A stretch of DNA of 7,647 nt from a virus (IMGVR_UViG_2671180755_000005), one strand, 5' to 3'; numbered from the stretch's first letter, positions 3,374 to 6,321 are shown. The notes: generated from the sequence alone by a model not told the origin. Numbers and translations: made by a program.

Positions 3374-4090
3374 ATGGAAACCGTATTTGACGCACTGAAA
3401 GCACTGAAAAAAGCCTCTTCACAGGTAGTGGCATCGCGCCTTGGAATCAGCCGCGAAGATGCTGTCAACGAACTGTGGAAACTGAAGCGCCGTGGTGAAG
3501 CGGATAACAAGGGGTCGATGTGGTGGCTGACTCAGACTGGTGAAAGTGAACCAGTGTCACCGGTACCGAAAGTGACAGCGCAAATGCTGACTGAGGCGAT
3601 TGAACATCATGGCCCACAAACGGCGGATGAGCTGGCACTGATGTTCGGGATTACCTCCCGCCGGGCGAATTCATCACTGGCCATGGCAATCAGCAAAGGG
3701 CGTCTGATTCGCGTGAATCAGGGCGGTAAATTTCGGTACTGCATACCGGGCGCTGATTTACCGGCAGAGCCGAAAGCCGCATCCATAACGGAAACGGATG
3801 GTAAAGCCTTTCCTCAGCCAGCAGGTGTTGCGTTACCAGTCGGGGAAGCGGAAACACAGGAAGAAATAAAAACTGAAAGTGTGGCGGTCACAGTGCAGTC
3901 ACAGCCGTCGTTCACCAGAAAGCATCCGGATGGTCTGATTTTACCATCGCTGCATGTGGCTAACCGCGAGCTGCGCCGGGCAAAAGGTCAGGTTCAGAAG
4001 TGGGAGCGAGTCTGCGCCGCGCTGCGGGAGCTGAACAAGTGCCGGGATATTCTCCGGGATATTACCGCCACCAGAGAACAGCAGCGGTGA
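3374..4090 (+). CDS. Hypothetical protein with two N-terminal winged-helix-like repeats and a basic, coiled-coil-like C-terminus
   Basis: ATG at 3374 with GGAGG 8 nt upstream; the ORF-track start at 3356 is a TTG with no SD. 238 aa. The two repeat segments begin around residues 1 and 70. Occupies the position that ren holds in lambda. Confidence 0.8.
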
Positions 4091-4122: not shown

Positions 4123-4404
4123 ATGATACTCCGGCAGTGTGCGGGAACGATGAAGGTAAAAAGCGTTGGCGCACTTATCGGACGAACTGAAGCGGCAGTG
4201 AGAACGAAGGCACGGGAGCTGGGCATCAGCATGATGTTACGTGGTGATTTTCACCCGTCGGCAAAATATTCTCAGCGTGATATTGAGCTGGCGCGGCAAC
4301 TGCATCAGAGAGGCATGCAAAGAAGGGAAATTGCCAGAAAATTAGGCATGCCGCTGCGCATAGTGAATAACTACGTTTATTTCGACAGGAGGGTGTCTGC
4401 GTGA
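4123..4404 (+). CDS. Small hypothetical protein with two HTH-like segments
   Basis: Open frame 4000-4404. ATG at 4123 chosen as start. An alternative GTG at 4087 overlaps the upstream stop as GTGA, suggesting coupling. Neither has a clear SD, so the start is uncertain. HTH-like segments: GALIGRTEAAVRTKARELGIS and MQRREIARKLGMPLRIV. Confidence 0.6.
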   Translation: MILRQCAGTMKVKSVGALIGRTEAAVRTKARELGISMMLRGDFHPSAKYSQRDIELARQLHQRGMQRREIARKLGMPLRIVNNYVYFDRRVSA

Positions 4405-4628
4405 AAATCCTGTATCAGGATTACGGCCCGGTGGGGCAGGTGGTTATCAGCAGTACTGTAATGGAGTTTCGGAAGCATAACCGTGTGGTGGATGCTGTGC
4501 TGTTAACCTGTCCGGGGATATCGGCGAGTCGTGCAGGTGTGTTTATTATGAAGACGAAATTATATGGCAGTAAGGCGTGGATAAAGAAGGCGTATCGTGT
4601 AGCGTTGCAGGAGGTTAACAGTGAGTGA
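4401..4628 (+). CDS. Small hypothetical protein (75 aa)
   Basis: GTG at 4401 with AGGAGG 8 nt upstream. Start overlaps the upstream stop as GTGA (4401-4404). Confidence 0.65.
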   Translation: MKILYQDYGPVGQVVISSTVMEFRKHNRVVDAVLLTCPGISASRAGVFIMKTKLYGSKAWIKKAYRVALQEVNSE

Positions 4629-4932
4629 AATTAAAGAAATGCCGGTAGTTCGTGACGGATATGGCTACTGGACACATCCTGAATATGAAAAATTCTGTGA
4701 TGGTCGGGAATATATTTCAACGGAAGAGTTTAACGCCTGGATGGAGGAAAATAATCTTCAATACGTCCTCTGCTTCAGAGATGAAGGATGTGCTGACCTT
4801 GATGCGTGTGATGCTGATATTTCTGCATGGGAACCGGAACGACCAGAGGGCGATGGCTGGTTTATTGGTTCCATTCATGATACGGAAGATGGCCCGGTTT
4901 GTGTCTGGTTGCGAAATAAGGCTGAAGCATAA
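4621..4932 (+). CDS. Acidic, Cys-containing hypothetical protein (103 aa)
   Basis: GTG at 4621 with AGGAGG 7 nt upstream, overlapping the upstream gene by 8 nt. About 25 Asp/Glu against about 8 Lys/Arg, plus five Cys. Confidence 0.7.
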   Translation: MSEIKEMPVVRDGYGYWTHPEYEKFCDGREYISTEEFNAWMEENNLQYVLCFRDEGCADLDACDADISAWEPERPEGDGWFIGSIHDTEDGPVCVWLRNKAEA

Positions 4933-5036
4933 AGGCGATAAACCAACTAACAACTAAATACTGAAGATTTAAATCAGAAACGATTTTTATTAAATCCTTA
5001 ACCGGAGGGATTCCTGCACCCTCAGAACATCAGGAG

Positions 5037-5054
5037 GCCGCCCGAAAGGGCGGT
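5037..5054 (+). other. GNRA-tetraloop hairpin (CCGCCC-GAAA-GGGCGG) between an AGGAGG motif (5032-5037) and the ATG at 5060
   Basis: 6-7 bp GC stem with GAAA loop. No U-tract follows on either strand, so not a canonical intrinsic terminator. Confidence 0.4.
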
Positions 5055-5059
5055 AAGAA

Positions 5060-5278
5060 ATGAAACATTATTTAGAAAAAAATTACCCACGAAAGAGCAG
5101 AACAACAGAGTTTCTGTTTTTCATTCTGTTTATAGTGTTGATGATACCGATATCCCCGCTATTACTGGTCTGGATAATTGGAAGGACATTTGAACCAGTT
5201 ATTGAGCTATATACCGATGTGACATGGGAATCATTCAGCGCACTGCACAATAAAATTAATCCGTATAAGGAAAACTGA
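5060..5278 (+). CDS. Small membrane protein (72 aa, one predicted TM helix), AT-rich accessory gene
   Basis: Complete ORF with hydrophobic segment FLFFILFIVLMIPISPLLLVWIIG. Its AT content is clearly higher than the flanking genes. Stop TGA at 5276-5278 sits next to the ATG of the following gene. Confidence 0.55.
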   Translation: MKHYLEKNYPRKSRTTEFLFFILFIVLMIPISPLLLVWIIGRTFEPVIELYTDVTWESFSALHNKINPYKEN

Positions 5279-5279
5279 T

Positions 5280-5837
5280 ATGAGCACTATTACCAGAGAA
5301 CGCGCGGAGATTAAATCATACATCACAGGCTTCCTGAGCGACTCGGCGCACGATAACAAGTCTTCAGACAGCCTGCTGGCTAATGTGTTTCGTATCGCGC
5401 TGGCATCACTGGAAGCAGAGCCGATAGCAATGGTAGTGCCTGATGAAATGGATTTGCTTACCTGCCATCTCGACGGTGTAACTAAAACATATGCTGATGG
5501 CTGGAACGCCTGCCGCGTCGCCATGCTTCAGGCCGGAAACTTTCGGGAAAATAAGAATTCGTCAACCAACAATTTTCGGGAAATCTCGGAAACGTCAACC
5601 AGATCTCCGATAACTCTGGATGGCTGGATAAGCTGTACTGAGCGAATGCCTGAAAAGAGCCAGAACGTGCTTATTTCGATGAATATCGATAGCGAGGCTG
5701 GGCCATTAATATATTCCGCACGCTATCTCGGAGGCACGTTCCGGCGCGGAGGTATAGCAGTTAGTCCGGGTAATGATCTTAGGCAAGCAACCCACTGGAT
5801 GTCGCTACCAGAACCGCCGCAGGAGGTGAATCAATGA
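5280..5837 (+). CDS. DUF551-like phage protein
   Basis: 185-aa ORF with AAGGAAAA upstream of ATG 5280. C-terminal DGWISCTERMPE ... THWMSLPEPPQ matches the DUF551 signature as I recall it. Confidence 0.75.
   Translation: MSTITRERAEIKSYITGFLSDSAHDNKSSDSLLANVFRIALASLEAEPIAMVVPDEMDLLTCHLDGVTKTYADGWNACRVAMLQAGNFRENKNSSTNNFREISETSTRSPITLDGWISCTERMPEKSQNVLISMNIDSEAGPLIYSARYLGGTFRRGGIAVSPGNDLRQATHWMSLPEPPQEVNQ
5538..5600 (+). repeat. Imperfect 31-bp tandem direct repeat inside the DUF551-like gene
   Basis: AACTTTCGGGAAAATAAGAATTCGTCAACCA (5538-5568) versus AATTTTCGGGAAATCTCGGAAACGTCAACCA (5570-5600), 23 of 31 identical, encoding NFRENKNSSTN / NFREISETSTR. Confidence 0.6.
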
Positions 5838-5917
5838 CCTGGCCTGAAGCATTCACAACGGTAGGAATTGCGATGGCGGTGGCGCTGGTGGTGTATTCGA
5901 TTTGCCGCTGGGGATAA
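5834..5917 (+). CDS. Candidate 27-aa hydrophobic small protein (MTWPEAFTTVGIAMAVALVVYSICRWG)
   Basis: ATG at 5834 with AGGAGGTG 7 nt upstream, forming an ATGA overlap with the DUF551-like stop. Single TM-like segment. Below the ORF-track size cutoff. Confidence 0.35.
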   Translation: MTWPEAFTTVGIAMAVALVVYSICRWG

Positions 5918-5924
5918 AAACGGT

Positions 5925-5952
5925 TTGCGGGAAAAGGATAGTTAAGTAGAAT
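5925..5952 (+). promoter_or_regulatory. Candidate promoter of the hok-like mRNA (-35 TTGCGG 5925-5930, -10 TAGAAT 5947-5952)
   Basis: -10 is a 5/6 match to TATAAT with a 16-bp spacer. The predicted start around 5958-5960 coincides with the 5' element GCGGGTGCTTGAGG. Confidence 0.4.
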
Positions 5953-6070
5953 TGCTGCGGGTGCTTGAGGCTATCTGCCTCGGGCATGAACACCAACGGC
6001 AGATAGAGAAAAGCCCCAGTTAACATTACGCGTCCTGCAAGACGCTTAACATTAATCTGAGGCTCAATCC

Positions 6071-6202
6071 ATGCTGAACACATGTAGGTTAGCCTCTTAC
6101 GTGCCGAAAGGAATGGTAACGAGGAAAGACCTCTGCGAGGTGCGAATCCGAACCGGTCAGACGGAGGTCGCTGTCTTCGTAGACTACGAATCTGAGAAGT
6201 AA
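6071..6202 (+). pseudogene. hok: hok/gef-family type I toxin reading frame with in-frame loss of the transmembrane segment
   Basis: 43-codon ORF MLNTCRLASYVPKG-M-VTRKDLCEVRIRTGQTEVAVFVDYESEK. The tail matches the Gef/HokC periplasmic tail (recalled as ...VTRKDLCEVHIRTGQTEVAVFTAYESE) and the MLNTC start matches the MokC-type leader frame, but the roughly 23-codon hydrophobic segment is missing. Conserved 5' (5957-5970) and 3' (6252-6266) complementary RNA elements flank it. Confidence 0.6.
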
Positions 6203-6321
6203 GAGACCAGGCGGGGGAGTAATCTCCCGCCACCTCTGATGTGTCAGGCATCCTCAACGCACCCGCGCTTTACCATACTGAAAATGCTGTTTGAATGTTC
6301 ATCTCTGAAAGAGGACTATGA

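Follow-up and report, generated by a model that had tools for sequence, protein, structure and literature searches.

A portable acidic domain in temperate phages and conjugative plasmids: a candidate polyanionic inhibitor of host nucleic-acid-binding proteins

Introduction

A stretch of viral DNA of 7,647 nucleotides (IMGVR_UViG_2671180755_000005), taken here at its full length and called the window, holds that part of a Rac/Stx-type lambdoid prophage which covers immunity, replication and a nin-like region. The subject of this paper is a gene on its plus strand, at positions 4621-4932, that encodes a strongly acidic protein. In 103 amino acids there are 25 acidic residues (10 Asp and 15 Glu) and 8 basic ones (3 Lys and 5 Arg), giving a net charge of -17 and an isoelectric point (pI) of 4.12. 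The initial annotation of this DNA had counted these residues correctly; it placed the gene at the end of a coupled cassette in an early-expressed region and proposed that the product is a DNA mimic or anti-restriction factor.

The proposal raises two questions. Is the acidity a property of a gene family or an accident of one small open reading frame (ORF)? If it belongs to a family, what could the charge be for? Here we describe the gene, the family and the settings in which relatives are found in phages and on plasmids. The acidity is a selected property of a portable domain, and we tentatively suggest that this domain inhibits a host protein by offering it a polyanionic decoy. Four other explanations are weighed where the evidence that bears on them is given.

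The acidic gene and its start region

The gene carries the following features.

4609..4615, plus strand: Shine-Dalgarno sequence AGGAGGT, 5 nucleotides (nt) before the GTG start codon, read from the sequence
4621..4628, plus strand: 8-nt overlap, GTGAGTGA, between the start of the acidic gene and the stop of the upstream gene (translational coupling)
4621..4932, plus strand: coding sequence of the acidic protein, a stand-alone copy of the PHROG 1372/20322 domain (ORF list, composition, profile match, RefSeq and dN/dS, the ratio of nonsynonymous to synonymous substitution rates)
4651..4680, plus strand: N-terminal signature, codons 11-20, with G15 and H19 invariant and P20 nearly so (alignments A1 and A3, broad module alignment)
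4720..4776, plus strand: helix 2 (TEEFNAWMEE, with the invariant W40 and four Glu) and beta-strand 1, codons 34-52 (AlphaFold2 model, AF2; conservation)
4777..4857, plus strand: acidic loop, codons 53-79, with 10 of the 25 acidic residues, ending in W-x-P-x-x-P-x-G-x-G (predicted local distance difference test, pLDDT, of the AF2 model; alignment)
4858..4917, plus strand: C-terminal beta-hairpin GWF-x-x-SIHDTEDGPVC-x-W-x-R, codons 80-99 (AF2 strands, alignment A1)

The frame opens with GTG and closes with TAA (ORF list). Its GTG overlaps the upstream gene, whose TGA lies at 4626-4628, and the start of that upstream gene overlaps in turn, at 4401-4404, the stop of a gene for a helix-turn-helix (HTH) protein. 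The acidic gene thus closes a unit of three coupled genes, in the place at the end of a cassette that the initial annotation had given it, and a gap of 127 nt lies on its 3' side. No intrinsic terminator was found 3' of the gene.

An identical coding sequence is filed in RefSeq as a hypothetical protein of Escherichia coli O157:H7 (WP_001289673.1). Complete E. coli genomes with identical DNA number about 500, and several prophages of one genome often share it. In a carrier E. coli genome the two-gene stretch 4401-4932 is found at 2 places in the median and at 5 at most, and six places are on plasmids; the multiple copies reflect several related lambdoid prophages in Shiga-toxin-producing strains. 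Compared with its homologs in Rac-SA53 and D6, the gene has a dN/dS of 0.12-0.15 and is therefore a real gene under purifying selection. A non-functional ORF was considered and is excluded by this ratio together with the conservation.

A conserved domain with a clear signature

The protein matches phrog_1372 over residues 1-102 (E = 4.1e-56) and phrog_20322 with E = 6.5e-09, both of unknown function. It is no orphan, but a full-length member of a conserved domain family of about 100 amino acids. No match for it was found in Pfam (E <= 0.1), NCBIfam or PADLOC. A word-indexed search gave 228 homologs in Enterobacterales, all named 'hypothetical' or 'prophage protein', and a profile search of 1.84 billion representatives gave 732 representatives at 50% identity with E <= 1e-3. 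The C-terminal hairpin served as the search pattern for homologs; loci were retrieved with alignment A1, the diverse alignment A3 being too divergent for that purpose.

Domain position was scored in 148 representatives, 16 of them fragments and 132 non-fragment modules. Of these modules 56 are stand-alone, 40 lie at the N-terminus of a protein that extends beyond them, 35 lie at the C-terminus behind an N-terminal extension and 1 is internal. The unit of about 100 amino acids behaves as a domain, mostly a stand-alone one. A single representative, P0136 (305 amino acids), carries the module in tandem, each copy being followed by a helical extension of about 35 amino acids; this arrangement may hint at a dimer as the functional unit.

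The family signature consists of R-D-x-x-G-x-W-T-H-P, an invariant Trp in helix 2, a variable acidic loop and W-x-P-x-x-P-x-G-x-G-W-F-x-x-S-I-H-D-T-E-D-G-P-V-C-x-W-x-R, and every one of these motifs is present in the protein encoded in the window. The C-terminal hairpin is the most conserved block, with F81, H86, E89, G91, C94 and W96 invariant in alignment A1. Among distant members G15 and H19 are invariant, and at least 90% of these members share P20, W70, P72, P75, W80, G91 and W96; C26 and C94 lack such conservation. This is, in short, a large and strongly conserved family with a clear sequence signature, absent from Pfam and without structural relatives.

In the AF2 model, residues 34-43 form a helix and residues 46-52 a strand (pLDDT 86-89), followed by strands at 80-88 and 91-99; residues 51-70 are of low confidence (pLDDT 62-64). 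The predicted fold is a compact, Trp-rich alpha/beta core, with two helices packed on a three-stranded sheet, to which a flexible acidic loop of variable length and other acidic patches are added. Searches for sequence or fold homology to known DNA mimics found none. The only PDB sequence matches were discarded, being the Strep-tag II of tagged recombinant proteins: WTHPEYEK (residues 17-24, 4669-4692) resembles WSHPQFEK. The likeness is almost certainly due to chance and could mislead automated annotation.

The acidity belongs to the module

At -16.5 net charges per 100 amino acids, the protein is by far the most acidic product of the 12 plausible genes in the window, and of 176 ORFs that flank the gene at 48 homologous loci not one reaches this value. 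Close homologs have net charges of -10 to -20 and a pI of 4.05-4.6. In the 132 distant modules the median charge per 100 amino acids is -13.7, as against -3.1 in their fusion partners. The acidity is a selected property of the module and not of the proteins to which it is joined, and it is no product of chance.

How is this charge laid out? Only about 7-8 acidic positions are conserved individually: D12, E30, D54, one or two in the loop, and D87, E89 and D90 in the hairpin turn. The acidic cluster of the loop, DEGCADLDACDADISAWEPERPEGD (residues 54-78), lies in a region, equivalent to residues 53-79, that holds about half of the net charge across relatives (median -7). The loop part of this region, equivalent to residues 53-69, measures 9-27 residues in relatives and is about 30% acidic. 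With so few acidic positions fixed, the rest of the charge is a matter of composition and is concentrated in the loop, which is what selection on bulk charge would be expected to give. Strict conservation is seen for Trp, His, Gly, Pro and Cys, not for carboxylates.

This layout bears on the classical form of DNA mimicry, in which a rigid dimer of the Ocr/ArdA type, with carboxylates set at the spacing of B-DNA phosphates, blocks type I restriction-modification enzymes. The charge density is of the same order as that of Ocr. Fusions of the module to Lar, a homolog in the ral slot of phage mEp213 (both described below) and a tandem duplication in P0136 that is compatible with a functional dimer would also suit such a mimic. 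However, 10 of the 25 acidic residues lie in the loop at 53-79, much of which has low pLDDT and a variable length, and this speaks against a rigid surface; homology to known mimics, a place among the first genes expressed and a leading-region location are all missing. We consider a rigid mimic of this kind improbable.

Proteins to which the module is fused

Among 72 long representatives, the module is fused to Lar_restr_allev in 3 and to an Rv2179c-like 3'-5' exonuclease in 2. It is fused once each to RdgC, a Tad2-like domain, DHHA1, a TrwB DNA-binding domain and a winged helix, and several PHROGs of unknown function are further partners. The Lar fusions occur in three divergent clusters (P0146, P0222 and P0237). 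The exonuclease fusion is found in RefSeq proteins on 10-12 contigs, and a cluster look-up showed both this fusion and that to an unnamed domain to be recurrent, including on long contigs. In two clusters of Pseudomonadaceae 3'-5' exonucleases built at 90% identity (P0202 and P0209), some members have 191 amino acids and no module and others 297-298 amino acids with the module, a split that suggests recent gain or loss.

The unnamed domain is the commonest fusion partner. It has about 95 amino acids, ends in LVKAGALILAEIERLDR and bears the signature ERxRQ...W(T)xEHDD...WPW...WKP...RRxLVKAGALILAEIERLDR. It takes up residues 1-95 of P0171, is found also in P0154, P0172, P0214, P0225 and P0227, and is C-terminal in P0218 and P0231. 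It has no sequence match in Pfam, NCBIfam or the PDB. Kinship with MazG-like or DUF550-like proteins had been suspected and finds no support in these databases. The domain is thus a second orphan domain of mobile elements.

The fusions and the conserved residues together raise the possibility that the module is a small ligand-binding, metal-binding or catalytic domain, built around H19, H86, D87, E89, D90, D12 and the five Trp, and that its acidity is secondary. A charge decoy would need far less conservation of polar and aromatic residues than is seen, and the Tad2-like, DHHA1 and 3'-5' exoribonuclease-like partners act on nucleotides or sequester them. Yet a strongly anionic protein would bind anionic nucleotides poorly, the variability of C26 and C94 in distant members leaves no fixed Cys/His metal site, similarity to an enzyme or sponge fold is lacking, and the Tad2 and DHH fusions are singletons. 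For these reasons we doubt seriously that binding or catalysis is the primary role of the module.

By Pfam, no dominant neighbour gene emerged over 142 flanking ORFs from 48 species; the matches were TraU (5), ERF (2) and Exc (2), with one each of Dam, C5-methylase, DndB, PDDEXK, N peptide and Ead/Ea22. The lack of a fixed partner gene fits a self-sufficient effector aimed at a host target. A conserved cassette of a small basic and an acidic gene was considered and rejected, the upstream genes being mutually unrelated in the window, Rac-SA53, D6, mEp213, PY54, Vibrio XM1 and IncF plasmids.

The module in phages

By tblastn the family is present in 83 phage records with very different backbones. 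Its hosts are temperate phages of Gamma- and Betaproteobacteria, among them lambdoid phages, the P1-like D6, the N15-like PY54, Burkholderia phages phiE125 and phi1026b, and phages of Pseudomonas, Vibrio, Erwinia and Klebsiella. Presence is patchy among closely related phages, and the setting is always a variable early accessory cluster. Within the window, O157 and Rac-SA53 this is the nin-like region. In Rac-SA53 the gene directly upstream of the homolog rac22 is rac21 (5753-6007 of locus L001, 84 amino acids), whose product ends ...SFCPFCGESL..., a zinc-ribbon-like sequence reminiscent of Lar-type proteins.

In several phages Lar-like, DNA methyltransferase and exonuclease genes are no more than a few kb from the module. 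In mEp213 the homolog, gp45, lies in the pL operon between N and cIII, just downstream of N, which is the slot of lambda ral, and abc2 is in the same operon. That leftward operon has two genes for N or N-like antiterminators (1953-2285 and 3438-3710 of locus L006), 1.2 kb apart, and the homolog is just downstream of the second. In PY54 the homolog, ORF48, is clustered with a Lar-like gene, two exonucleases, a Dam DNA methyltransferase and DinI. A DNA methyltransferase lies 0.4-2.5 kb from the homolog in phiPSA1, where the homolog is 0.4 kb downstream of it, and in Vibrio phage XM1, where RdgC, a 3'-5' exoribonuclease, RusA and Dam are nearby. The homolog in D6 adjoins the ppp phosphatase gene and Ead/Ea22 genes.

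The module on plasmids

The family is present on 2,042 plasmid records, 1,761 of them conjugative and 1,499 from Klebsiella. On Klebsiella IncFII plasmids the order is traI, traX, finO, a PIN-domain gene, a hypothetical gene, DUF2726, the coupled homolog, a gene for a PLD-family nuclease and repA; the homolog overlaps the stop of the DUF2726 gene. Other IncF plasmids have the homolog between traW and traU. The module has widely colonised unrelated mobile-element backbones, which fits a horizontally mobile accessory domain.

On the Klebsiella IncFII plasmid pWRC12_P1 (locus L010), 6984-9946 is a nuclease-rich accessory cluster at the distal end of the tra operon, and loci L011 and L015 are laid out alike. 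Clusters of this type could be defence or counter-defence islets of these resistance plasmids.

The IncFII order also suggests an immunity or antitoxin-like role, in which the acidic protein would inhibit a nuclease encoded by the element itself in the manner of barstar or the colicin immunity proteins. There the homolog overlaps the stop of DUF2726, which we take to be nuclease-like, and precedes the PLD-family nuclease gene, with the PIN-domain gene close by. But the pairing with DUF2726 and the PLD-family gene is confined to one plasmid lineage. In the phages examined and in the traW-traU slot no nuclease is adjacent, and the upstream genes are unrelated. An immunity protein is therefore very improbable.

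Another explanation is that the module serves its own element, as an adaptor or accessory subunit in the machinery for DNA replication, recombination or transfer, and has no part in anti-defence. The acidic tails of SSB and T7 gp2.5 recruit or regulate enzymes that process single-stranded DNA (ssDNA), and the module could work in a similar way. Its fusion partners and neighbours are mostly enzymes of DNA ends and ssDNA (3'-5' exonuclease, RdgC, DHH/DHHA1, ERF, a RusA-like resolvase). In the window the gene is just downstream of a DnaT-domain initiator and a P-like helicase loader, and plasmid homologs are found in the tra operon, which transfers ssDNA, adjoining traU or downstream of traI. Against an adaptor, no enzyme family is a constant partner, the module stands alone in 56 of the 132 scored representatives, and its patchy presence among closely related phages is that of accessory genes and unlike that of core machinery. 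On balance we hold an adaptor role to be unlikely, with a good deal nonetheless to be said for it.

Neighbouring genes in the window

In order, the window carries a gene for an S24-peptidase repressor on the minus strand, followed by cro-like and cII-like genes and those for the DnaT-domain initiator and the lambda-P-like loader. After these come DUF1627, the HTH protein, phrog_1001, the acidic gene, DUF4014, DUF551, hok/sok and a BOF/YgiW-family protein. The two genes coupled upstream of the acidic gene are:

4123..4404, plus strand: HTH DNA-binding protein, first of the coupled trio; 4123 is the RefSeq start, the longest ORF running from 4000 (HTH matches, phrog_323, RefSeq)
4401..4628, plus strand: upstream coupled gene, 75 amino acids, pI 9.8, phrog_1001, of unknown function (composition, PHROG match)

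The phrog_1001 gene accompanies the acidic gene only locally and is no conserved partner of the family, the upstream genes in other backbones being unrelated to it. Judged by synteny with lambda, the acidic gene would lie in the delayed-early rightward operon between P and Q, the equivalent of the lambda nin region. The DUF551 gene stands two genes downstream of it. Kinship between the product of that gene and the C-terminal hairpin of the acidic protein is plausible by eye and was set aside: hhalign of alignment A1 against the DUF551 protein of the window gave a probability of 0.1, in what is a weak test with a single-sequence template.

Between the acidic gene and DUF4014 there is a GC-rich stem with a GAAA tetraloop (5032-5062). 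The stem-loop at 5037-5054 has a folding energy of -16.4 kcal/mol (z = -4.3) and sits between an AGGAGG (5032-5037) and the DUF4014 ATG at 5060. The absence of a T-run on the 3' side of the stem rules out a terminator; the stem may draw a remote Shine-Dalgarno sequence near the start codon, or stabilise or process the mRNA.

Farther downstream, the hok/sok locus extends over 5959-6283, with an Rfam sok match at 5959-6128 and an ORF at 6071-6202. Compared with TR01 of E. coli O157:H7, 83 bp have been replaced by 2 bp in the window, with the junction at about 6111-6114. Both the start codon of hok and the transmembrane segment at the N-terminus are lost with the replaced DNA, and the Hok toxin of the window is therefore probably inactive.

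Discussion

What might a portable, strongly anionic domain do for the elements that carry it? The Lar fusions, the ral slot, the methyltransferase and exonuclease neighbours and the conserved charge point towards counter-defence or the inhibition of a host enzyme. The exonuclease fusions, the DUF2726 and PLD-family setting on Klebsiella IncFII plasmids, the lack of a fixed partner gene and the wide spread over unrelated backbones are in keeping with it. Our preferred reading, which we offer as a possibility well short of an established function, is that the protein is a stoichiometric polyanionic decoy or inhibitor of a host nucleic-acid-binding protein; the analysis shows the family with its conserved charge, predicted fold, distribution and fusions, while binding, target and a role in counter-defence are all inferred. 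Temperate phages and F-like conjugative plasmids carry this polyanionic domain of about 100 amino acids in their variable early or transfer operons. Its acidic loop or surface would fill the site at which a host protein binds nucleic acid. That protein would be one that acts on the DNA of the element; a restriction enzyme, another nuclease and a recombination enzyme are candidates. The Trp-rich core would dock on the host protein, with the R-D..G.W.HP and SIHDTEDGP motifs giving specificity. The benefit to the element would be the protection or establishment of its DNA.

Several observations weigh against this reading. The conserved Trp, His, Gly, Pro and Cys residues could equally mark a ligand or metal site, or a hydrophobic core. 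The nin-region position suggests that the gene is delayed-early in this prophage and hence not among the first genes expressed. ArdA-type anti-restriction genes are located in the leading region of plasmids; a location of this kind was not found for the homologs on the IncF plasmids examined, which lie in the tra operon or at its distal end. Each of the Tad2 and DHH fusions is a singleton from a short contig. The types of protein found as fusion partners are also frequent operon neighbours, and some fusions may only record adjacency. The predicted fold matches no solved structure, known inhibitor or mimic. Finally, we found no mention in the literature of the protein, its locus tags or its PHROG identifiers, nor of a binding partner or phenotype.

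A wider form of the decoy idea takes in the whole family: an unrecognised inhibitor domain of new fold, used by phages and F-like plasmids as a portable decoy, by itself or joined to Lar, to exonucleases and to other effectors, and directed against a conserved host enzyme of DNA-targeting defence or of repair. Carried by hundreds of E. coli prophages and on more than 2,000 plasmid records, it would then be among the most widespread uncharacterised counter-defence modules in Enterobacterales. We regard this generalisation as rather unlikely.

Two of the original claims survive in altered form. The region is early in the broad sense, by its nin-like position, and delayed-early in detail, so that the gene would not be one of the first expressed. 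The proposal of a DNA mimic or anti-restriction factor divides in a similar way. Its more general part, counter-defence or inhibition of a host enzyme, is favoured by the module-specific charge, the Lar fusions, the ral slot and the neighbours. Its classical part is not: similarity to known mimics is absent, about half of the net charge is in a variable loop of low pLDDT, the invariant residues are not carboxylates, and the plasmid homologs are in tra regions.

If the protein is a counter-defence decoy, it would add a new fold to the few nucleic-acid-mimic inhibitors; the EVADES catalogue has 11 DNA-mimic anti-defence proteins. The finding would put a name to a gene, so far 'hypothetical', that is present in about 500 complete E. 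coli genomes, Shiga-toxin producers in many cases, and on about 2,000 plasmids, most of them conjugative IncF replicons of Klebsiella. Any factor that eases the establishment of such plasmids and prophages in new hosts is relevant to how resistance and virulence genes spread. The portability of the module would also be a handle for finding more anti-defence domains through guilt by association. Should the decoy idea prove wrong, the family would still merit definition and a structure.

Comparison with known systems

A first comparison is with the DNA-mimic anti-restriction proteins Ocr (T7 gp0.3) and ArdA. Like them, the acidic protein is a small product of a mobile element with an excess of Asp and Glu, and its charge is conserved in the family, some members of which are fused to Lar or lie near methyltransferases. 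Of the 116 residues of Ocr, 34 are acidic and 6 basic (PMC3439906), about -24 per 100 amino acids as compared with -16.5. The rigid surface of ArdA bears carboxylates in a helical pattern that is positionally conserved (PMC2731889), whereas here much of the charge is in a variable, low-confidence loop and not on a rigid helical array. There is no similarity of sequence or fold to either protein. Nor is the gene earliest-expressed or in a leading region, with the exception of mEp213 gp45, just downstream of N. The charge places the protein with the Ocr/ArdA class, and homology and a first-expressed or leading-region position do not; it is therefore not to be filed as a DNA mimic, though it may work like one.

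With Lar of Rac and Ral of lambda the likeness is one of genomic niche: the ral slot in mEp213, the Lar-like neighbour in PY54 and the Lar fusions in three clusters. Lar is a small zinc-ribbon protein that alleviates type I restriction. The acidic protein has no match to PF14354 (Lar_restr_allev), and in its relatives Lar is present only as a separate fused domain. Any function shared with Lar or Ral would come through association, not homology.

A third comparison is with small acidic proteins that inhibit DNA enzymes and have flexible or short acidic elements: T7 gp5.9 and lambda Gam, directed against RecBCD, T4 Arn, directed against McrBC, and DinI and PsiB, directed against RecA. The acidic protein differs from these in that no homology to any solved structure was detected for it. 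It resembles them in being small, acidic and encoded in an early region; DinI itself is in the PY54 cluster, and abc2 is in the mEp213 operon. By analogy with these inhibitors, it would plausibly act by occupying the DNA-binding site of its target.
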